Both the position numbers and the translations under genes were made by a program. The notes beneath the pieces were generated by a model. The model saw only the letters and a program-made list of their open reading frames with translations, ran no database searches and was not told where the DNA came from. From a virus (lineage: Duplodnaviria > Caudoviricetes), in IMG/VR virus record IMGVR_UViG_3300023118_000002, positions 1-60,247 of that record: a stretch of DNA of 60,247 bases; one strand, 5' to 3'. Shown here one piece after another: positions 4,771 through 59,989 of this stretch. Numbering within the stretch: position 1 is the first letter of the stretch; each line of letters starts with the position of its first letter.

Positions 4771-4923
4771 TTAAACGAGTTTGGATGCTCGGTAGGCGTA
4801 TGCGGAGGATTCCACAGTCTTAGCGACGGCCTTCAGGAGTCCGGTTGCTACTACAGCAGCGGACAAGAGAATGGTCGCGGCGAAGATGGGGTCTTCTTCG
4901 AAACGGGCTTTGAGTTTCTTCAT
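4771..4923 (-). CDS. small single-TM protein
   Basis: Promoter and extended RBS upstream; hairpin 4729-4759 downstream. Confidence 0.75.
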   Translation of the reverse strand: MKKLKARFEEDPIFAATILLSAAVVATGLLKAVAKTVESSAYAYRASKLV

Positions 4924-4945
4924 TGGTTTTCCTTTCAAGAGGGTT

Positions 4946-4972
4946 TCATTATAGGGGTTGTTTTTAATGCGA
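4946..4972 (-). promoter_or_regulatory. phage promoter motif copy 2
   Basis: TCGC ATTAAAA ACA ACCCC TATAATGA. Confidence 0.8.
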
Positions 4973-5085
4973 GGCTTTATGGCATTTGCAATCACAGTCT
5001 ACGTGTGCGCCTTTATACCCCCGAATATCGTTCTTGCATTCTTCGTGGTTGCCCATAAAGCATTCGTTGGTAAGTGCTTCTCCAC

Positions 5086-5316
5086 TCACGTAGTCACCTC
5101 CTCATCCACCTTGAGAGTTGTCAGCTCGAGGTTCGGATAATGGCGCGCGAAGACGGATTCCGGCATGATCAGAAAGCGCGGACGCTCGCTCCAATCCTCG
5201 ACCAGAATCCAGCCAATGTTCGTGGTGTAAGCCCGCTCATCGACACCTGAAATATGATGCAGGAGATTGGTGTTTTTCTCGGTTACTTTCCAGGCTTTTG
5301 TTTCTTGATTAGCCAT
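5086..5316 (-). CDS. hypothetical protein
   Basis: 76 aa ORF coupled to upstream stop (TAATG). Confidence 0.65.
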   Translation of the reverse strand: MANQETKAWKVTEKNTNLLHHISGVDERAYTTNIGWILVEDWSERPRFLIMPESVFARHYPNLELTTLKVDEEVTT

Positions 5317-5456
5317 TACTTTGCTTCCTCTTCCGCGCGAGCGATCTTGAGTTGTTCTTCCCAGTGCTCAACTTCGTCCCAGAAGCCGAGGCCTGTAGCC
5401 AGCTTACAAAGCTTCTCGAGCGATTCAATCGAATATCCGGTACTGTTGGTCATCAT
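5316..5456 (-). CDS. 46 aa hypothetical protein (MMTNSTGYSIESLEKLCK...)
   Basis: Hand translation; AAGGAGTAAATGATG start context. Confidence 0.6.
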   Translation of the reverse strand: MMTNSTGYSIESLEKLCKLATGLGFWDEVEHWEEQLKIARAEEEAK

Positions 5457-5463
5457 TTACTCC

Positions 5464-5661
5464 TTAAGACAAACGGTTTATCAGGATCTTGCTGAGTGTG
5501 TTGAGTCCGATTATGATGGCGATTCCAACGATGAGCTTCTCTGCTGCGTGGTCAATTACATACGTGACCTGGGCAGGAATCGGAATATCGTTTGTAGCAG
5601 GTTCAGGTGCTGCTTTGGGTTGCTCTTTTACGATGCGAACCTCGAGTTTACGACCAAGCAT
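5464..5661 (-). CDS. small protein with C-terminal TM helix
   Basis: Extended RBS before ATG 5661; the longer ORF-track start runs through a promoter and an ncRNA. Confidence 0.7.
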   Translation of the reverse strand: MLGRKLEVRIVKEQPKAAPEPATNDIPIPAQVTYVIDHAAEKLIVGIAIIIGLNTLSKILINRLS

Positions 5662-5706
5662 AGGGTCTCCTTTCAAGAGAAAAATTATAACCTGTGTTAG
5701 GTTACT

Positions 5707-5763
5707 GAAAAATATCTTACGGATTCGAACCGTGACGCCCCACAATGTGCGAGAGTATCTTTC
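5707..5763 (-). ncRNA. putative ~57 nt tRNA-like small RNA with T-loop
   Basis: Closing stem GAAAGATA/TATTTTTC, hairpin CTCGCA/TGTGGG, T-arm ACGG-TTCGAAT-CCGT; lies between promoter copy 3 and hairpin TAACCT/AGGTTA plus T-run. Confidence 0.5.
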
Positions 5764-5788
5764 ACTATAGGGCTTGTAATTCATGCGA
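5762..5788 (-). promoter_or_regulatory. phage promoter motif copy 3
   Basis: TCGC ATGAATT ACA AGCCC TATAGTGA. Confidence 0.8.
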
Positions 5789-5822
5789 AAAACTATAGGC
5801 CTTGTTAGGGCCCAATAGCTTT
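5788..5822 (-). terminator. hairpin whose T-run abuts the next promoter
   Basis: GCTATTGGGCC-CTAACAA-GGCCTATAGT-TTTT-CGC. Confidence 0.65.
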
Positions 5823-5985
5823 ATTGGATGTTGAACGGGTGATCTTCGGTGACAATTCCGTGAAATGCTTTTTTATTCAAGTTTTGGAGCTTTCGGAGTG
5901 AGAGACCAACTACGATCGCGGTTGCGAGGCAGACAGTCCCAAACAGGATAGCTACTTGCGTTGAGGTAAGTTGCGATTCATTCAT
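5821..5985 (-). CDS. 54 aa single-TM protein (MNESQLTSTQVAILFGTVCLATAIVVGLSL...)
   Basis: Hand translation; promoter copy 4 and GAAAGGA RBS upstream. Confidence 0.7.
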   Translation of the reverse strand: MNESQLTSTQVAILFGTVCLATAIVVGLSLRKLQNLNKKAFHGIVTEDHPFNIQ

Positions 5986-6006
5986 TGGTTTTCCTTTCAG
6001 AGGGGT

Positions 6007-6033
6007 TCATTATAGGCTATGTTTTCCTTGCGA
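6007..6033 (-). promoter_or_regulatory. phage promoter motif copy 4
   Basis: TCGC AAGGAAA ACA TAGCC TATAATGA. Confidence 0.8.
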
Positions 6034-6073
6034 AAAACTATAACCTTTGTGGAATTACCGTGAGGTTATAGTT
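6033..6073 (-). terminator. hairpin whose T-run abuts the next promoter
   Basis: AACTATAACCT...AGGTTATAGTT followed by TTT-CGC. Confidence 0.65.
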
Positions 6074-6078
6074 GGATG

Positions 6079-6336
6079 TTAGTTTGCGGGTATAAACCAC
6101 ATGGGGGTGTTTGGTGCAACGACTGTTTCAATGATTTCGGTAACGCCGTACTTGCGTACATCATCGAGGTACGGGTTGGACAACATTTCTTCGTACACCT
6201 TTTTAAGTTCGAGATCAGGGGCATGTTTGAGCGACACTGCTGCGTAGGCAATGACCGCTCCTCCAATTGCTGCTCCGGCGTAAAGGGCGTAAAAAGTCAG
6301 TTCGTCTTTATGGTTTTTGATGAATGTCTTAAGCAT
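6079..6336 (-). CDS. small single-TM protein
   Basis: Promoter copy 5 and extended RBS. Confidence 0.75.
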   Translation of the reverse strand: MLKTFIKNHKDELTFYALYAGAAIGGAVIAYAAVSLKHAPDLELKKVYEEMLSNPYLDDVRKYGVTEIIETVVAPNTPMWFIPAN

Positions 6337-6365
6337 GGGGTTCTCCTTTCAAGAGAAATTAGGGT

Positions 6366-6392
6366 TCATTATAGGCCGTGTTTTCCTTGCGA
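6366..6392 (-). promoter_or_regulatory. phage promoter motif copy 5
   Basis: TCGC AAGGAAA ACA CGGCC TATAATGA. Confidence 0.8.
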
Positions 6393-6409
6393 AAAAATAT
6401 AACGTATGT

Positions 6410-6456
6410 AAAAAGGGAGGACTAGTCGGCTATTAAGCGTTCTAGTCCTCCCTTTT
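6410..6456 (-). terminator. strong intrinsic terminator
   Basis: AAAAGGGAGGACTAG...CTAGTCCTCCCTTTT perfect 15 bp inverted repeat. Confidence 0.8.
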
Positions 6457-6485
6457 GGGAGTGCTATTGATTGGGTTAGCGGGTA

Positions 6486-6773
6486 TCAGATTTTCTTGAT
6501 CATACTGTAGCTTTTCGAGGTGACAGCACCGATCGATTCTTTCGAGATCACGAGGAGGATTCCGAGGATGTTCACTCCAGCACTGACCCAAACGTCTTTG
6601 CTTACGGCGGTCTTCTTTGGCTTGTTGCCATTGAGGACGTCGTTGAGTTTGACAATTTGGTCTGTGATGCGAGCGTACTCCGCGGAATCGGGATCGTGGG
6701 TTTCGAGATCGGCGATTGCGATGTTGATCATCTTTTCAAGGTGAGGGTATTGTTCAGGTGTTTTCTTCAACAC
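6486..6773 (-). CDS. small membrane protein
   Basis: Promoter copy 6 and extended RBS before GTG; C-terminal hydrophobic helix. Confidence 0.75.
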   Translation of the reverse strand: MLKKTPEQYPHLEKMINIAIADLETHDPDSAEYARITDQIVKLNDVLNGNKPKKTAVSKDVWVSAGVNILGILLVISKESIGAVTSKSYSMIKKI

Positions 6774-6796
6774 GAGGGTCTCCTTTCAAGAGGGGT

Positions 6797-6823
6797 TCAC
6801 TATAGCACTTGTTTTTACTGCGA
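6797..6823 (-). promoter_or_regulatory. phage promoter motif copy 6
   Basis: TCGC AGTAAAA ACA AGTGC TATAGTGA. Confidence 0.8.
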
Positions 6824-6824
6824 A

Positions 6825-7277
6825 TTACTGATCGTAAGGCTGAATCGGGTTTACAACCTGGATGACACTCTGAGCTGCTTCTACTTTGGCAACACCCTTG
6901 TCATCAACCGTGGCAGAGTTGCTAGGCGATACGATGAGTCCATCGGTACGGATCTGCACGCCGAACTCAGTTGCTGCGGCCTTAATAACACCGATCAGCA
7001 CCAGAATAACCTCGGACCATGTAATCTGATGCGAGATTGCATACGGCAGCACAAGCGCAATAGCTGCACCAGCCAGATCCACGAGGGTCTTTGTAGCTCC
7101 CGGCCACTTACCTGGCAGAAGGGACACGAGACCCACCGACACAACGGTCGACAGGAACAGCGCGCTCAGCTGCAGGAAAGTAACCAGGTCGAACGTCTTG
7201 ACTGCAGAAACCGCGGTGAGGACCACGATAAGCAGACCGAAGATACCTGCGCCATACTTCTTAAGTACAGTGTTCAT
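6825..7277 (-). CDS. multi-TM membrane protein, holin candidate
   Basis: About four TM segments; AAGGAG RBS; follows the last tail gene. Confidence 0.55.
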   Translation of the reverse strand: MNTVLKKYGAGIFGLLIVVLTAVSAVKTFDLVTFLQLSALFLSTVVSVGLVSLLPGKWPGATKTLVDLAGAAIALVLPYAISHQITWSEVILVLIGVIKAAATEFGVQIRTDGLIVSPSNSATVDDKGVAKVEAAQSVIQVVNPIQPYDQ

Positions 7278-31838: not shown

Positions 31839-32296
31839 TTGCTAACTTCTCCTGCCTGCTTTATAAGCGTCAGGTAGATGAAGATAACACGTGAAATTGG
31901 TATTACCAAGAATGATGAATTGAGAACGAAAGAAACGCCTCGAGCAACATCACCTTGGAAAAAAGCAAGCGCAATAAAAACTTCATAGACCAGAACTAGT
32001 GTTACTAAAGAAGCAGCACTATACATCTCAAGTCTAGCAAACTTCGGAAAGAACGTGGCTCCGAGTAAAGCGCAAAAAGCAGTTGGTAAAACTAAAGTCG
32101 AAAATGCAATTTGGAAAAAATCGCCCTGCGCCTCAACCAAGGTGGGGATAGATCCAAAAATTGAAGCAATGCCCCAAAGAAAATAGATCAGGTAAAGTGT
32201 GGCGGCTGATCTATGGTAAAGTACAGCGAGAACTTTGTCAGGTCCCCAATCATCACCGATGCGATGAAACACAGTTCGGTCTATAAATTTGCGCAT
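31835..32296 (-). CDS. four-TM membrane protein, holin candidate
   Basis: Four hydrophobic segments; downstream of endolysin. Confidence 0.6.
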   Translation of the reverse strand: MRKFIDRTVFHRIGDDWGPDKVLAVLYHRSAATLYLIYFLWGIASIFGSIPTLVEAQGDFFQIAFSTLVLPTAFCALLGATFFPKFARLEMYSAASLVTLVLVYEVFIALAFFQGDVARGVSFVLNSSFLVIPISRVIFIYLTLIKQAGEVSK

Positions 32297-32349
32297 GGAA
32301 ACCCCCTAAGCTTTACGCATGGCTTTTGAAAGAATGTAGTTAGTTTTAA

Positions 32350-32532
32350 CAGGCTTTGAAGGGAACACCAAGACTTTCACACAGTTTTTTCGGACCCGAC
32401 CGATACACCATGCGCTTGAAAGGAGGGGGTCGGAGAAGGCTGATGAAGGCCTAAGTAACCCACTTTGTGTCTTGATGTTCCCGTCAAAGCCTGCAGTGGG
32501 ATCGCTATCCATTTTGAGTAGCGATCCCACTG
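32350..32532 (-). ncRNA. putative structured RNA displaying CCUCCUUUCAAG
   Basis: 14 bp hairpin 32494-32532; long stem 32469-32493 with 32350-32374; inner stem 32428-32433 with 32396-32401 enclosing the motif at 32415-32426. Confidence 0.6.
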
Positions 32533-32539
32533 AGCTTAC

Positions 32540-33346
32540 TTACTTTAGAACTCGGTTGTTCTCGGCGTTAGCACGTTCTGCTGCGGCCTTCATGTTTGGA
32601 CCCCAAAGATCATCGCGGTCTTTGTAGCCCCACTTGGAACGAAGCCAGTTCGCAACCGAACCACGGTAGTTGACGTTAAGGAAAGTCTGCAGACCCTTAC
32701 GAGTCTTAGGGCCAGGCTTGTTGTCAACTGCAGTAGCACCACCATTGCGACGAGCAATTTTCTGGAAGCCCTCAATGTTAGAGAGCGACATCAGATCTTC
32801 TACGGTTGCTGTGTGGTAGCTCGGCGCAGGAGCGGAAGGCGCAGTTGGCGCACTTGGCGTTGCCGGCGGTGCATCCACAAGCGAACCTCGATTGGTCTTG
32901 TGCCAGGGCTCTCCGAAGTTGTAGCCTTCGTTTTCGAAGTTGAACTGTCCGGCATGATCGCGCATCCAGTTGTCTCGAGCGGTTCCACGGGTCATCACTC
33001 CCTTGTCAGCTCCGGTGTCCCGGATGTCGATTGAACGCGGACCGTTAGGACCATCGTCTTCGTGGTTGGAAGTACCAGGTGCGGCGACCGTACCAGCTGC
33101 AGAGATACGATACCAAAGCTGACCGTTCCAGCTTCGTGTGTCGTAGACCTTGCGTCCCTTGATACCACCAGAAGTTACGTAGCGCTGACGGAAAATGCTT
33201 TCCTGCTCAGCACGAGTACGAGTACCACTTGAGATGATCAAGCTCTGACCGGTGGCTGCATGGAATGCTTCGTTCATACGATCGAAGTCGGCAGCAACAT
33301 GTATCTCTACACGCTGGCCGTTACGGGTGGTGTACGAATATGTCAT
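32540..33346 (-). CDS. endolysin, M15-family Zn peptidase plus C-terminal cell-wall-binding region
   Basis: SGTRTRAEQ, PGTSNH, SIDI, EPWH motifs; Pro/Ala linker. Confidence 0.85.
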   Translation of the reverse strand: MTYSYTTRNGQRVEIHVAADFDRMNEAFHAATGQSLIISSGTRTRAEQESIFRQRYVTSGGIKGRKVYDTRSWNGQLWYRISAAGTVAAPGTSNHEDDGPNGPRSIDIRDTGADKGVMTRGTARDNWMRDHAGQFNFENEGYNFGEPWHKTNRGSLVDAPPATPSAPTAPSAPAPSYHTATVEDLMSLSNIEGFQKIARRNGGATAVDNKPGPKTRKGLQTFLNVNYRGSVANWLRSKWGYKDRDDLWGPNMKAAAERANAENNRVLK

Positions 33347-37708: not shown

Positions 37709-38001
37709 GTATGCTATAAAGTCGAGGAAGCTAGACAAAAAAATTATCACATGTAAAAAACACAAATCTCAAATATTTTGGGCAAAAAACTTTTCTGTAG
37801 GAAATTTGATTTTATAGCATGCTATAATTCTAAAATTCTCGCGTAAAGAGTTTATAGCAAAATATTTGTGTTTTTGTGCAGAGGATTTCCCGGAATTCCG
37901 GGGTTTTTAGGGGGTGTCTCAAAAAAACCGTTTCTAAGACACCCCCAAAACCCTCGACTTTATAGCATACACCTCGGCCTACTTGTATGCTATAAAGTCG
38001 G
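37709..38001. repeat. AT-rich non-coding region with inverted iterons; candidate replication origin
   Basis: GTATGCTATAAAGTCGAGG at 37709-37727, exact inverse at 37952-37970, partial copy at 37985-38001; palindrome TTATAGCATGCTATAA at 37812-37827. Confidence 0.7.
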
Positions 38002-41957: not shown

Positions 41958-42148
41958 CAGACAAGCTTATCTACTGCACGCTTGATAGCTTTTACAAGCT
42001 CCTTAGTTTCGAAGTTGACAACCCCTTCAGTATCATCAACGTTCTGTCGTGATTCGATCGGGAGCTCAAATGTAGTGAGCTTGTTTTCGACGTATGACCC
42101 CTCGAGCCGAATTAGTAGCTCTACATGGATTATTTCTTTGTCAGCCAT
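41957..42148 (-). CDS. hypothetical protein
   Basis: 63 aa, GGAGG RBS, coupled stop/start. Confidence 0.6.
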   Translation of the reverse strand: MADKEIIHVELLIRLEGSYVENKLTTFELPIESRQNVDDTEGVVNFETKELVKAIKRAVDKLV

Positions 42149-42396
42149 TACTTAGCCTCCACAAGCGTGTACATTTGAATATTGTTCAGGTCTGTTAGAA
42201 TGTCAAACAGTTCAAAATCTATAGACTTCATTCCCGGGTCTTGCAATATTGTATGGCCTGGAATTAACACCGGATCATTTGCACGCCATGTAAATACGGT
42301 AGTTAACACTCGGGGAAATTCGAAGGTGGTCTTGGTATTGTCATCTTCAATTATTATGGTGACTTTTTTTGCACGCACTAAATTTATGTCGTTCAC
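42148..42396 (-). CDS. hypothetical protein
   Basis: Extended RBS before GTG. Confidence 0.65.
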   Translation of the reverse strand: MNDINLVRAKKVTIIIEDDNTKTTFEFPRVLTTVFTWRANDPVLIPGHTILQDPGMKSIDFELFDILTDLNNIQMYTLVEAK

Positions 42397-42596: not shown

Positions 42597-42716
42597 TGTC
42601 ATGGTGGGCACGATGTAGTTGCTAGCTACGCTGTTGTTTGAGATATGCGCCGGATTCGGTGCGCCATCCCCACCCGCTCTGAGCTTAAGACACTATTTAA
42701 AGACGCTCAGACGTCT
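42597..42716 (-). ncRNA. pistol self-cleaving ribozyme
   Basis: P1 AGACG/CGUCU with loop UCUGAG pairing to CUCAGA; UUAAAUAG; P2 UGUC/GACA; UUAAG; GCG; P3 GGUGGG/CCCACC; scissile A-U at 42602/42601. Confidence 0.9.
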
Positions 42717-44018: not shown

Positions 44019-44220
44019 GTTGTTCTCCTTTCAAGAGAAATATATCTTTTATAGCTTCGTTAGTCCGCTCAAGTCTTTCAACTTCTTGGGTAATGACTAC
44101 TGTTCCGTTTTCTAATCCCTCAAGCAATCGCTTAGCCGTTGGATCGGTATCTTGAGTCTGGATTGCCCGGTCTACAAGCGCTTGGGGGACATATGAAACA
44201 AAGGGCTCGCTTCTATCCAT
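43996..44220 (-). CDS. hypothetical protein
   Basis: 74 aa ORF coupled to upstream stop. Confidence 0.5.
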   Translation of the reverse strand: MDRSEPFVSYVPQALVDRAIQTQDTDPTAKRLLEGLENGTVVITQEVERLERTNEAIKDIFLLKGEQHGKGNSV

Positions 44221-44876
44221 TAGAGCTCTGGATCTTGCCGTTCGGAACGAATTCTTCCGATTTCATCCTGGATATACCAGATGGCTTTTTCCAAGTCGTT
44301 GATCTGCTTTTCGACCGTGTCACCACTGCCGGCTTTCAGACCATTACGCCAAAGGTACTTAAAAGCACTACCAATGTTAAAATTCCTGTGCCGAACCACC
44401 TCAATACACTCAATCCCACTTGGATCGATATTGTAGTGCTTAGGGTGGTTCACACCAGCTTGATCGATATCATTACCGGTGGTGCTCTTTTCTTCTTGAT
44501 TACTGTTCACGTGAGCATCTCTCCAATCAGGTTTAGCGATAGCAATCCCCAAGCATTTCTTACACATTGGACGAGTAGCGGTGTCATGGCTAATGTCATA
44601 CTCGAGGTTTGCGTAACTTAGTGCATTGTTAAGTCGAGGAACACCACACAATGTTTGCTCACTATCCAAAAGCGGTCTGTGAACCAAGGGAATTATCGCC
44701 TGAGGCTCATTGGCTTCTGAATTCCCCGCGGGACCTTCCGGACCTACCTGAGGTAGTTTTGGCTCCACGTATTCGTTACACTCGCACCTACTTCGTGCAC
44801 AAGGATGGCGATCTCCAGGATGCACCATCGGGTGACTACTCCACGAATGACCACAGTATTCACATAGCGGTTCCAT
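44220..44876 (-). CDS. DUF3310-domain protein with Cys-rich N-terminus
   Basis: VNHPKHY..GIECIEV..FNIGSAFKYLWR..DLEKAIWYI. Confidence 0.8.
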   Translation of the reverse strand: MEPLCEYCGHSWSSHPMVHPGDRHPCARSRCECNEYVEPKLPQVGPEGPAGNSEANEPQAIIPLVHRPLLDSEQTLCGVPRLNNALSYANLEYDISHDTATRPMCKKCLGIAIAKPDWRDAHVNSNQEEKSTTGNDIDQAGVNHPKHYNIDPSGIECIEVVRHRNFNIGSAFKYLWRNGLKAGSGDTVEKQINDLEKAIWYIQDEIGRIRSERQDPEL

Positions 44877-57547: not shown

Positions 57548-57925
57548 CTACTGGTTGTCCGACTCAGGCTTGTTGTCGTCCTGCTTTTTCTGGAGATCTT
57601 CGTCTGATGCGTGAAGAAGCTCCTTCTCCCAATCAGCCAAAGGCTCTTTATCACTCGGCTCGATTGCGTGATCGGCTTTCGGGTTGAACAGAGCGCTCAC
57701 CTTTTCTGCGTAGTTGTCGATCTGACTGGAGACGTGCTTTGCGGAAAGATCGCCCAGAACACCGGACAATCCCCAGCCTCCGATGGAGACCATGACTTTC
57801 TGGATCTTGCCAGAATCAAGGGGCGTAGTTGCCTTAACGAGATTGCCGACGACTGCTCCGACGCCGGCGCTTACTGCGAGTTCAGCTACACCTTTCAGAA
57901 GGCTAAGCTTGTTGATTGTTGCCAT
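57548..57925 (-). CDS. hypothetical protein with hydrophobic hairpin
   Basis: Promoter copy 8 and extended RBS. Confidence 0.75.
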   Translation of the reverse strand: MATINKLSLLKGVAELAVSAGVGAVVGNLVKATTPLDSGKIQKVMVSIGGWGLSGVLGDLSAKHVSSQIDNYAEKVSALFNPKADHAIEPSDKEPLADWEKELLHASDEDLQKKQDDNKPESDNQ

Positions 57926-57972
57926 GTTGTTCTCCTTTCAAGAGACAAATATAAAGCACCGGTTAGGGTCCT

Positions 57973-57999
57973 TCGTTATAGTGCATGTTATTTGTGCGA
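57973..57999 (-). promoter_or_regulatory. phage promoter motif copy 8
   Basis: TCGC ACAAATA ACA TGCAC TATAACGA. Confidence 0.75.
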
Positions 58000-58003
58000 A
58001 TGT

Positions 58004-58534
58004 TTACTTACTCGTGAAGATGGCGTTCTTGTACTCGAAGCTGGGGGAGTAGGCGATCGTGATATCTGCGGCGTCAGCAACGCTGAAAGCCTCGTTCCAC
58101 TTCATCGTCTGTCCAGCAAGAAGCGGGCCAGCGGGGGTGTCGCCGATGTTCTGACCGAAGTCCGAGATCGCTGCAGCCTGCTGTCCACCGGAGGTAGCTG
58201 TGGGCCACCCAGCCTGGTCGAGAGTCTTGTCCGAGTTGTTGGTAACTACGAGAGTGACCTGAATATAAGTCATTCCAGCAGTCGCTCCAGCCGCCTCAGG
58301 AGAAGGCGTGTATGGCGCTGCAGGGCTCACCGAGACGCTGACACCGTCCTTGTAGGTCACTACCTCGCCGAACTTCTTGACCAAAGGATCGGTCACAGGA
58401 GCAGGTGCCGGCTTCTCAACGGTTGCCGAGGAGGCCTTGGGATCTGCGTGGGTGGAACCCTGAACGGCGCATCCTGACATCAGGAGAACGACGGGGAGGG
58501 CGATTGCGATGCTGATTTTCTGGATGGTGTTCAT
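58004..58534 (-). CDS. lipoprotein with Ig-like (DUF4352-like) domain
   Basis: Signal peptide with lipobox-like MSGC; VTLVVTNNSD and LLAGQT motifs. Confidence 0.8.
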   Translation of the reverse strand: MNTIQKISIAIALPVVLLMSGCAVQGSTHADPKASSATVEKPAPAPVTDPLVKKFGEVVTYKDGVSVSVSPAAPYTPSPEAAGATAGMTYIQVTLVVTNNSDKTLDQAGWPTATSGGQQAAAISDFGQNIGDTPAGPLLAGQTMKWNEAFSVADAADITIAYSPSFEYKNAIFTSK

Positions 58535-58576
58535 TTTAGGTTTCTCCTTTCAAGAGAATTTATTTGTTGGTAAAAG

Positions 58577-58666
58577 TGTCGTTTTTATTACATAGCCTGG
58601 CAGGGCTTGTAACTGACCAGCTCACTTTAAGGCTGGAGGACGACATTCCCATCTGACTGCCATCAG
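58577..58666 (-). ncRNA. putative kissing-loop structured RNA
   Basis: Hairpin loops UGGCAG (58657-58662) and CUGCCA (58598-58603) are complementary; stems UGUCGU/ACGACA and CCAGC/GCUGG. Confidence 0.5.
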
Positions 58667-58668
58667 CG

Positions 58669-58758
58669 TGCCCGCCCAGGGACTCGAACCCTGGATCTGT
58701 CAGAGGATATGAACATTATTTAGAGGTTCATACTTGAAGACGCTACCGTCTCGCGGGC
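58669..58758 (-). ncRNA. non-canonical tRNA-like element (90 nt)
   Basis: GCCCGC/GCGGGC acceptor-like stem plus A; T-arm CAGGG-TTCGAGT-CCCTG; arms AGACG/CGTCT and TATGAAC/GTTCATA with an 11 nt loop; no encoded CCA. Confidence 0.65.
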
Positions 58759-58762
58759 TACC

Positions 58763-58802
58763 TCTCATCGCCTATCTTGAAAGGAGGTTTGTGGCGATGA
58801 GA
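58763..58802 (-). ncRNA. hairpin displaying CCUCCUUUCAAGA in a 20 nt loop
   Basis: Perfect 10 bp stem TCTCATCGCC/GGCGATGAGA; motif at 58775-58787. Confidence 0.6.
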
Positions 58803-58808
58803 AACTTG

Positions 58809-59501
58809 TTACTGCTGCGGTGCCTGGCCCGGGAAGAGATCCGTGCGAGGTGTGGACTGCTGAGTTACACCTTCCGCCGGAACTGCCGCATCTGGAACCG
58901 GAGTTCCACCGTAAGGGTATCCGTCAGGTCCAGCAGTCGGTGTCTGATACTGCTGAGGAGGCTGAACTTCCTGGGGCGCGGAGAACTGTACAGGCTGAGC
59001 GGGGGCAGTATCCTGCTGTCCCTGAGGAACTCCAAGACTTCCGGGGGTACCTGCTCCGCCCGCAACCGGAGGAGTAGGCCGCTCGGTGTTTGCACCAGGC
59101 CGAAATCCCTTGACTGCCTGTGCCTCACGATTCTTCGCAGCAATGTCTGGAGGAAGAATTGCGTTGATGAACTCCGCGGAATATCCACCGTTCTGAAGGA
59201 GCTCCATGATGAGAACAGAGTACGGCTCCGAGTTCTCAAAGCGAGCCCAGACCTCGTCGGACTTGAAGAAGGATTCACCATCCTCGCTCTTCTCACCATA
59301 GGTCCACTTGAGGATCTTGCGGAACTCCGGCATAACGACAGAGCCCTTATCTGAGGCACTGATCTTAGCCAGGGTCTCTGACCAGGTTCCATCGGACTCG
59401 AGCTCACGCATGGCAAGCTCGGCCTTGGTCAAGTTGAAGTAGAAATCTTTCGTGACCTGCTGGCCGTTGAAGTTGGTGTATGTAATCGGCTTGACGAGCA
59501 T
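58809..59501 (-). CDS. conserved hypothetical protein with Pro/Gln-rich tail
   Basis: ITYTNFNG..DFYFNLTKAEL and YGEKSEDG..F.KS blocks. Confidence 0.8.
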   Translation of the reverse strand: MLVKPITYTNFNGQQVTKDFYFNLTKAELAMRELESDGTWSETLAKISASDKGSVVMPEFRKILKWTYGEKSEDGESFFKSDEVWARFENSEPYSVLIMELLQNGGYSAEFINAILPPDIAAKNREAQAVKGFRPGANTERPTPPVAGGAGTPGSLGVPQGQQDTAPAQPVQFSAPQEVQPPQQYQTPTAGPDGYPYGGTPVPDAAVPAEGVTQQSTPRTDLFPGQAPQQ

Positions 59502-59509
59502 TGTTTTCC

Positions 59510-59989
59510 TTAAATTGCGTTGTGGTCAAAGACCTGGTTTGCGGTTTTCTTGTAGGTGTCGACGTATGTTTGGTGCCGTGTGACATCGTGTGTGACTTCG
59601 AAATATAGCCCGTCACCTGGAACTGTGGTGGAGATCATTGCTTTCCAGTTGCCCAGAATATAGGTCCACCAGACAATGTAGAGCTGCTCGACCGTCAACT
59701 CGTCTTCACCAGATTCGGCTGTGACAACTGCGTGAGCACCAACTACATACTGCTTGGCGTAGCGAAGGAAACGGTTAGGATCTTTGTCGTAATCCGAGGT
59801 GTCTTCGAACGGGGGATCTGCCTTGGAGGCCCACTTGGGTACCGAACTTCCATCGGGAAGTTTATCAATAGCCTCCTTCGAACATTGGGGACATAGTCCA
59901 GGTCCACCACAGCGCGCTCGGACTCGCTTGTACGATTCATCGTCGCTTGATGTTCCCGGAATATGATGTCCGTGACTTGTTAGAGCCAT
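59510..59989 (-). CDS. DUF6275-like protein with N-terminal Cys cluster
   Basis: YIVW....LGNWKAMIST....LYFEVT....TYVDTYKK; RCGGPGLCPQC. Confidence 0.7.
   Translation of the reverse strand: MALTSHGHHIPGTSSDDESYKRVRARCGGPGLCPQCSKEAIDKLPDGSSVPKWASKADPPFEDTSDYDKDPNRFLRYAKQYVVGAHAVVTAESGEDELTVEQLYIVWWTYILGNWKAMISTTVPGDGLYFEVTHDVTRHQTYVDTYKKTANQVFDHNAI

Follow-up and report, generated by a model that had tools for sequence, protein, structure and literature searches.

The locus and its hairpin

The DNA studied here is the virus record IMGVR_UViG_3300023118_000002, analyzed over its full length of 60,247 bp (hereafter the window), which represents a complete virus genome with a 127-bp terminal repeat. 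Its annotation (based on PHROGs) is that of a siphovirus, with a tape-measure protein, a portal and a large terminase, and 99 open reading frames (ORFs), called on the minus strand only, leave no more than short gaps in it. At the locus in question, all on the minus strand, a gene for a 230-aa protein (58809-59501; Pfam Phage_TAC_17, phrog_4282) is followed by a hairpin (hairpin A, 58763-58802), by a 90-nt element resembling a transfer RNA (tRNA) that starts four bases further on (58669-58758), and by a structured spacer (58556-58668) with a weak folding signal (z-score -1.63). The spacer ends at a copy of a leader motif, UCUUGAAAGGAG (58544-58555), placed 9 nt before the ATG of a lipoprotein-like gene (58004-58534), and another copy (57932-57943) stands 6 nt before the ATG of the phrog_7539 gene (57548-57925). 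Hairpin A displays the exact complement of this leader in its loop, and is most likely a conserved functional element of the sense RNA; RNA pairing that hides a ribosome-binding site (RBS) is a known principle.

The stop codon of the upstream gene (UAA, 58811-58809) is separated by six bases from the hairpin, whose arms UCUCAUCGCC (58802-58793) and GGCGAUGAGA (58772-58763) form a perfect 10-bp stem around the 20-nt loop ACAAACCUCCUUUCAAGAUA (58792-58773). Folded alone, it reaches -17.1 kcal/mol (z-score -3.94), and none of 200 shuffles folds as well. The loop contains the exact reverse complement of the 12-mer TCTTGAAAGGAG (58775-58786; 13 nt when the next G is counted), set within the displayed 16-mer ACCUCCUUUCAAGAUA (58773-58788). 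When the hairpin is placed in a 451-nt context, these 13 anti-leader bases are on average 98% unpaired, compared to 44% for the whole stretch. Coordinates, folding and motif search therefore bear out the original prediction as far as a perfect 10-bp stem after the 58809 stop codon, and a loop complementary to the leader over 12 nt, are concerned. A hairpin of this size is not rare in itself (the 60 kb contain 19 inverted repeats whose arms have at least 10 nt and lie at most 40 nt apart), and what is unusual is the reversed motif centered in the loop. We rejected an intrinsic terminator, which calls for a G+C-rich stem followed by a run of U: no terminator-like site was found in 58450-58950, and the stem is followed by GGUAGCCC rather than by a U run.

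A leader shared by non-structural genes

The 12-mer TCTTGAAAGGAG occurs 16 times in the genome on both strands together when up to one mismatch is allowed, against 0.44 copies expected from shuffles. Fourteen of these copies (9 exact and 5 with one mismatch, including the two described above) lie on the minus strand, and every one of them carries a Shine-Dalgarno (SD) core and stands 6-9 nt before a start codon. The leader precedes the starts of about ten genes, mostly small and non-structural, and its nine exact forward copies are all located outside the structural block (7.3-32.3 kb). The leader can itself fold into a weak hairpin (UUCUCUU-GAA-AGGAGAA, -4.2 to -4.9 kcal/mol). Several copies are found just downstream of TATAAT-like boxes, seen by eye, within repeated units of ~45 bp. 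Such units are best seen at 4900-6830 (minus strand), where four to five copies occur, each with two TATA(A/G)T boxes and with a leader motif and a small ORF behind it; this resembles a series of small genes that each have a promoter-like unit. A sigma-70 consensus scan recognizes only one of them, and since sigma-70-type scans gave no enrichment over shuffles anywhere in the genome, we make no promoter claim beyond the boxes seen by eye.

Only two copies are reversed, i.e., on the plus strand: the exact one in hairpin A (58775) and one with a single mismatch at 32414. Both are intergenic, both are unpaired, and both lie in RNAs that fold better than every shuffle.

Predicted duplexes between the loop of hairpin A and the leader amount to -19.3 to -19.4 kcal/mol for each of nine leaders, compared to -12.7 kcal/mol for the same leaders with a generic 16S rRNA tail motif and a median of -9.6 kcal/mol over 94 start regions. 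The loop hence offers what a base-pairing RNA that occludes SD sequences needs, namely an unpaired segment complementary to the SD region of its targets. Cofolding of the hairpin with the leader gave no information, because pairing through the loop creates a pseudoknot.

A second carrier of the reversed motif at 32.4 kb

The second reversed copy (32414-32425, reading CCUCCUUUCAAGC) sits in a junction strand of element B, a multibranch RNA of ~148 nt with a closing stem of ~25 bp (32347-32494, minus strand), which is flanked by a gene for a VanY-type endolysin and a membrane-protein gene. Element B folds at -68.1 kcal/mol (z-score -7.55), and its anti-leader is 74-80% unpaired. The claim that the RNA at 32.4 kb displays the same sequence as hairpin A on an unrelated scaffold holds for the scaffold, and nearly so for the sequence, from which one mismatch separates it.

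Conservation in related sequences

One related genome could be read, the 54,335-bp IMG/VR record G001, in which the counterpart of the 230-aa protein (locus L006) is 67% identical over its first 141 residues. The same leader is present there in 12 forward copies (10 exact, 2 with one mismatch) and in 2 reversed copies, both exact, so that both phages have exactly two reversed copies, each unpaired within a structured sense-strand RNA. After the homologous gene, G001 has a hairpin with a 16-bp stem of different sequence and a 20-nt loop, ACCACCUCCUUUCAAGAUAA, that shares the 16-mer ACCUCCUUUCAAGAUA with hairpin A. This 16-mer is the only match with an E-value below 0.1 between the 608-nt intergenic region of G001 and the present genome. 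The displayed sequence is therefore under selection, as had been proposed, being identical in G001 although the stems differ and the other intergenic DNA cannot be aligned. In the same region of G001 (L006, 3700-4190), ~500 nt after the hairpin are free of long plus-strand ORFs and have neither an Rfam match nor similarity to the window; this may be another large structured RNA.

Element B is likewise homologous to a segment of G001 (L086, 55-182). Five pairs of its ~23-bp outer stem differ by compensatory changes and three by one-sided changes, and the anti-leader and a 20-nt inner segment are unchanged. An exact-word scan of IMG/VR found an 18-mer of element B in G001 only. CUCCUUUCAAG is common to all four reversed copies of the two phages and extends into CUUG, the phage-specific part of the leader. 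A search with Rfam 15 reached no gathering score at 58500-58900, at 32250-32600 or in the two G001 loci, and showed nothing relevant at permissive E-values.

Beyond G001, blastn of 57900-59600 gave no match among 50,697 phage records, and the 230-aa protein used alone retrieved no relative from IMG/VR. An alignment of 30 proteins used as query retrieved further loci, from which the best 80 of 467 in IMG/VR and the best 80 of 358 in metagenomes were considered. Among the matches listed, only the G001 locus exceeded 50% identity to the 230-aa protein, and the coding-strand sequence CCTCCTTT(C) appeared only there and in an unrelated hairpin of locus L107. The latter, in a distant relative without a repeated leader, is an intergenic coding-strand hairpin (1444-1500) with CCUCCUUUC in a 16-nt loop, and could be due to chance or be a generic anti-SD display. 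The exact 16-mer was found in 28 stretches of IMG/VR, all of which except G001 read as usual RBS sites of the opposite strand. Closer relatives are present in other collections as proteins (P0002-P0030). Among named phages, those nearest by the 230-aa protein infect Arthrobacter, Gordonia, Streptomyces, Curtobacterium and Faecalibacterium, all at less than 60% identity.

Contigs from a public run (X2) provide a third sequence, a variant ~96-97% identical to the window. Our table for it lists 26 of the 29 differences of the contig piece (up to three being unseen), with codon and pair assignments made by our own arithmetic. The listed differences in the 230-aa gene fall at third codon positions in 12 of 14 cases, and those in the lipoprotein-like gene (176 codons) in 17 of 20. 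For the 274-nt intergenic region, five substitutions and one insertion are listed. Two of these, T>C on the plus strand at 58763 and 58768, turn two U-A pairs of the hairpin stem into U.G pairs in the minus-strand RNA, and a third (58791) affects loop position 2, outside the 16-mer. No difference is listed in 58596-58762, which contains the tRNA-like element. In the same contigs, 58868-59051 is replaced or shortened (105 nt by 174 other letters, and 56 nt by 23) over the Pro/Gln-rich tail of the 230-aa protein, which is a hypervariable C-terminal region.

The element belongs to the sense strand

Several observations favor, from sequence comparison, a sense (minus-strand) RNA. The two stem changes of the X2 variant keep pairing only in the minus-strand RNA, as both would be C.A mismatches on the plus strand, and the T-arm of the neighboring element, 4 nt from the hairpin, reads as such only on the minus strand. 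The stems contain G.U pairs, and five of six elements fold better as sense than as antisense RNA. The compensatory and one-sided changes in the outer stem of element B point the same way, as does the one-directional layout of the genome and, in what is a weak test, the lack of sigma-70-like promoters on either strand in 58450-58950. The label of an “antisense circuit” given to the element in the original prediction is thus misleading, since the element comes from the strand that also encodes its targets and would act on the sense transcripts at other places.

That prediction also offered a plus-strand alternative, and we regard it as very unlikely that the reversed motif acts on that strand, be it as the RBS of an ORF at 58797, as the start of an antisense transcript or as a small RNA serving as SD decoy. 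The motif does place a GGAGG 9 nt before an ATG that opens a frame of 185 codons (58797-59354, plus strand, antisense to the 230-aa gene), and hairpin A is slightly more stable as plus-strand RNA (-20.7 vs. -17.1 kcal/mol). Nevertheless, an RBS-scored scan of the window found no plus-strand ORF clear of a longer minus-strand ORF, and the product of this frame matches no Pfam or PHROG family at E-values up to 1. Ten of twelve listed X2 differences within it affect its first codon position, equivalent to the third one in the minus-strand gene, and the frame following the reversed motif of G001 extends over 6-8 codons only; in element B the frames have 3 and 16 codons. The lack of a sigma-70-like promoter, the stem changes that would break the plus-strand hairpin and the adjacent T-arm argue against the plus strand as well. 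We therefore judge the 185-codon frame not to be a gene and an RBS function at 58797 to be unsupported, given the lack of a family match, the X2 codon pattern and the lack of conservation in G001.

The strand-specific changes also bear on the idea that a DNA-binding protein or polymerase of the phage recognizes the motif as DNA, the reversed copies being such sites turned around. A motif that is long (12-16 nt), invariant and often located just downstream of TATAAT-like boxes in the ~45-bp units would suit such a role, and the genome encodes a 911-aa protein named RNA polymerase by PHROGs, with helix-turn-helix-like hits. This idea does not account for the fact that both reversed copies are unpaired within conserved RNA structures, for the covariation of stems or for stem changes that are G.U-compatible on one strand only, and 14 of 14 forward copies are placed before start codons with an SD core; we hence consider it highly improbable.

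A tRNA-like element adjoins the hairpin

The tRNA-like element, which the original prediction did not mention, has an acceptor-like stem of 6 bp with a G.G mismatch (GCCCGCG / GGCGGGC), a discriminator A, and a canonical T-arm (CAGGG-UUCGAGU-CCCUG) made of a 5-bp stem and the loop UUCGAGU. These parts agree with what is expected of an acceptor/T-arm minihelix, namely coaxial acceptor and T stems of ~12 bp together, a T-loop of the GUUCGA type and an unpaired discriminator base. The interior consists of a D-like hairpin, whose loop has 4 nt, and of an 8-bp stem capped by a loop of 11 nt. The element is not a tRNA gene: the “anticodon” loop has 11 nt rather than 7 and the D-like loop only 4, ARAGORN detected no tRNA or transfer-messenger RNA (tmRNA) gene in the window, and Rfam at E-values up to 10 gave no tRNA or tmRNA match, the T-arm matching mascRNA only. 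The 25-mer at its 3' end is shared, without a difference, with a real phage tRNA in an IMG/VR contig (L004), where it is also 3'-terminal; it had no exact match in 185,579 species genomes. An attachment site (attP) carrying the 3' part of a host tRNA was rejected, as no host tRNA matched and the 61 ORFs scanned (of the 99 called) included no integrase family. A second T-arm-like motif at 5731, the T-loop-like word GGUUCGAAUCC in the intergenic stretch 5676-5760 (minus strand), was discarded, as it folds into a 4-bp hairpin only, with no acceptor-like stem.

In G001, only a 12-bp minihelix is kept, with the loop GUCGAA and the same ...GGGCAC end, and, by our reading of the pairs, its acceptor stem differs from that of the present phage by a compensatory C-G to G-C change. 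The order is reversed, as the minihelix precedes the hairpin in G001 and follows it here. The conserved unit is hence, from this comparison, an acceptor/T-arm minihelix adjoining an anti-leader hairpin. The minihelix would most likely serve as a cutting signal for the enzymes that mature tRNAs.

A candidate anti-leader RNA

Our preferred reading, at about even probability, is an anti-leader RNA of the sense strand: probably released by cleavage at the tRNA-like element, it would base-pair with the leader common to these genes and occlude its SD sequence. The loop of hairpin A would bind UCUUGAAAGGAG on the leader-bearing mRNAs, open the weak hairpin of the leader and cover the SD core, which would lower translation and allow one RNA to control a whole gene class, whether in trans or in cis. 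The minihelix would act as a signal for both processing and stability: if the enzymes that mature tRNAs cut there, the hairpin would be released from the polycistronic transcript as a presumably stable RNA and come to lie at the 3' end of the upstream piece in this phage and at the 5' end of the downstream piece in G001. Element B would be a second carrier of the same anti-leader. What would be notable here, going by the repeated motif, is one RNA addressing a whole set of identical leaders.

The C/U-rich loop also resembles the 3' tail of 16S rRNA, and hairpin A could instead mimic this tail, serving as a general sponge for SD sequences or diverting a protein or nuclease specific for the anti-SD tail. 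Its 5' part (ACCUCCUUUC here, CACCUCCUUUC in G001) is closer to the anti-SD tail than to the leader complement, UUCUCC, the loop flanks that lie outside the leader complement are conserved between the two phages, and the best single predicted partner of the loop is the portal start region, with a GGAGGU (-21.0 kcal/mol). Against such mimicry, the conserved CAAG(A) that follows UUUC matches the leader and has no counterpart in the 16S tail, element B of G001 reads UCUCC, which is the exact leader complement and differs from a 16S tail, and a sponge would face competition from thousands of ribosomes; mimicry thus seems rather improbable. Since CUCCUUUCAAG enters the phage-specific CUUG, it is the complement of the leader, and not the 16S tail, that the reversed copies have in common. 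The anti-leader RNA is therefore favored, because the reversed copies share CUCCUUUCAAG, because element B of G001 reads UCUCC, and because the loop-leader duplexes are stronger than those of the generic 16S tail motif with the same leaders and than the median over start regions.

A parallel in Cluster K mycobacteriophages

Cluster K mycobacteriophages carry a start-associated sequence (SAS), GGGATAGGAGCCC, of which four K1 phages have one copy that points the other way and is not associated with a gene start (PMC3203893). Whether RNA or protein binds the SAS was left open (Pope et al., 2011, PMC3203893). In Anaya, 16 forward copies and one reversed copy were found in the 36 kb examined, the latter in the 385-nt gp96-gp97 intergenic region (z-score -5.96), where it occupies the apical loop of a sense-RNA hairpin. 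Across 12 Cluster K phages (chosen along the identity range from 135 records matching this region), the loop has retained CCTCCTATCCC in 10, and none has lost the outer stem of 10 bp, where the changes are one-sided or, in two cases, double. The region of Anaya is homologous to the intergenic region between genes 92 and 93 of Adephagia, in which late transcription appears to initiate (PMC11373665). The SAS genes lie in the early, non-structural arm, and together with the late start in the 92-93 region this fits a late RNA silencing early leaders.

Both systems thus have an asymmetric motif with an SD core (12-13 nt and 9-19 copies for the SAS) a few bases before the starts of non-structural genes, one or two copies in the opposite orientation away from gene starts, and a reversed copy in the apical loop of a conserved sense-strand intergenic hairpin. 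As for a SAS-type leader, 14 of the 16 copies in the present genome lie on the minus strand and the exact forward copies are outside the structural block. The motif sequence, phage lineage and host all differ, the reversed copies are two here and one there, and, unlike in this phage, no adjacent tRNA-like element was seen in Cluster K. As the sequences are unrelated, we consider the leader to be an analogue of the SAS and not a homologue. A limited literature search found no paper giving the reversed SAS copy a role, and the accessible part of a 2025 survey of 188 Cluster K genomes does not mention reversed or antisense copies.

A protein with a DUF3310 domain is encoded at 44220-44828 (minus strand) in the present genome, and the DUF3310 protein gp51 of Adephagia has been speculated to act on the translation of SAS-bearing genes (PMC11373665). 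Its co-occurrence with a leader system may be a coincidence.

The Cluster K comparison also bears on whether the loop has any pairing role. Hairpin A could be a purely structural RNA signal (a 3'-end stabilizer, a processing or a pause site) whose loop is a leftover inverted leader, which would agree with its position, 6 nt past a stop codon and beside a probable processing element, in a genome with 19 hairpins of such size, and with some Cluster K phages doing without the loop sequence. We see this as unlikely, since a relic loop should drift, yet 16 loop bases are identical in the two phages while the stems differ completely, and an unrelated scaffold displays the same sequence, twice over.

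A number of observations nonetheless weigh against an anti-leader RNA. In Cluster K, the loop of Amohnition has drifted with an unchanged SAS, SirPhilip is without the loop sequence, and ZoeJ and TBond007 (right ends of K2 and K3 genomes, last 3.6-3.8 kb) have SAS copies and no reversed copy; the anti-leader is therefore an optional add-on that such leaders do not need. Among the relatives of the present phage, a more distant one (locus L088) shares the leader (4 copies in 12 kb), yet no anti-leader follows the homologous gene there, and another leader type, TCAAAATGGAG, has no reversed copy among 18 in four related phages. Forming a 12-bp helix inside a closed loop of 20 nt makes high steric demands. 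The flanks of the loop (ACC... and ...UA) are conserved but do not complement those of the leader (UC...AA), so that something beyond leader pairing is conserved, and the opposite order of hairpin and minihelix in the two phages makes a single processing logic not obvious. The check for covariation of loop and RBS extension suggested in the original prediction gave no signal: as loop and leader are both invariant in the three available sequences, there is conservation and no covariation. Finally, no public run recorded as RNA contains the stretch.

Related regulatory systems and implications

C/U-rich hairpin loops that pair with SD regions are known from regulatory RNAs of Gram-positive bacteria (Staphylococcus aureus RNAIII, RsaE/RoxS, SprD). 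As in these RNAs, hairpin A combines a pyrimidine-rich unpaired loop with a stable hairpin and is complementary to the SD region of several mRNAs. The bacterial RNAs are encoded separately, each with its own promoter and terminator, and act through seeds of 4-9 nt on varied targets, whereas the element described here is embedded in the sense polycistronic transcript and matches one identical leader exactly over 12 nt. RNA processing at tRNA-like structures has precedents in mitochondrial tRNA punctuation and t-elements, the mascRNA end of MALAT1, the 3'ETS-leuZ of E. coli and the tRNA-miRNA units of murine herpesvirus. The present element similarly places an acceptor/T-arm mimic in a longer transcript beside a potentially releasable RNA, and differs from these cases in being neither a detectable tRNA nor an Rfam family, with its cleavage only predicted.

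Among phages, T4 shuts off early mRNAs through the endonuclease RegB and the repressor protein RegA (PMC3014915), which likewise address a class of the phage's own mRNAs through a shared extended motif containing the SD in the start region. These effectors are proteins, unlike the RNA proposed here.

It is tempting to speculate, although we are inclined to doubt it, that some phages with a class-wide leader encode same-strand anti-leader RNAs processed at tRNA-like elements as a master translational switch, and that such a switch arose independently in Cluster K. If so, early genes could for example be shut off when late transcripts appear, and start-associated sequences would gain a mechanism. 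Such leaders have been described in actinobacteriophages since 2011, and in the accessible parts of papers from 2011, 2024 and 2025 their role is still called unknown. A sense-strand RNA with the exact complement would be a simple and testable partner for SAS-type leaders, and the idea can be tested in Cluster K phages, which grow on Mycobacterium smegmatis and for which RNA-seq data and recombineering exist. The locus would also add an example of a tRNA-like minihelix within a phage mRNA, in the same genome as a match to the Pistol ribozyme.

Other features of the genome

The match to the self-cleaving Pistol ribozyme lies at 42665-42716 (minus strand; 38.4 bits, compared to an Rfam gathering score of 34.5), ~250 nt upstream of a leader-bearing gene (42148-42396), and would be a second RNA-processing device in this one-directional genome. 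A 1,278-aa primase-polymerase is also encoded. The best-matching public run is labeled as a leaf-litter metagenome, and may be the source of the record itself. Lastly, a 200-bp intergenic stretch at 37800-38000 contains three strong inverted repeats or palindromes (arms of 17-20 nt) together with a TG-extended promoter-like site, and is probably a regulatory region or an origin.

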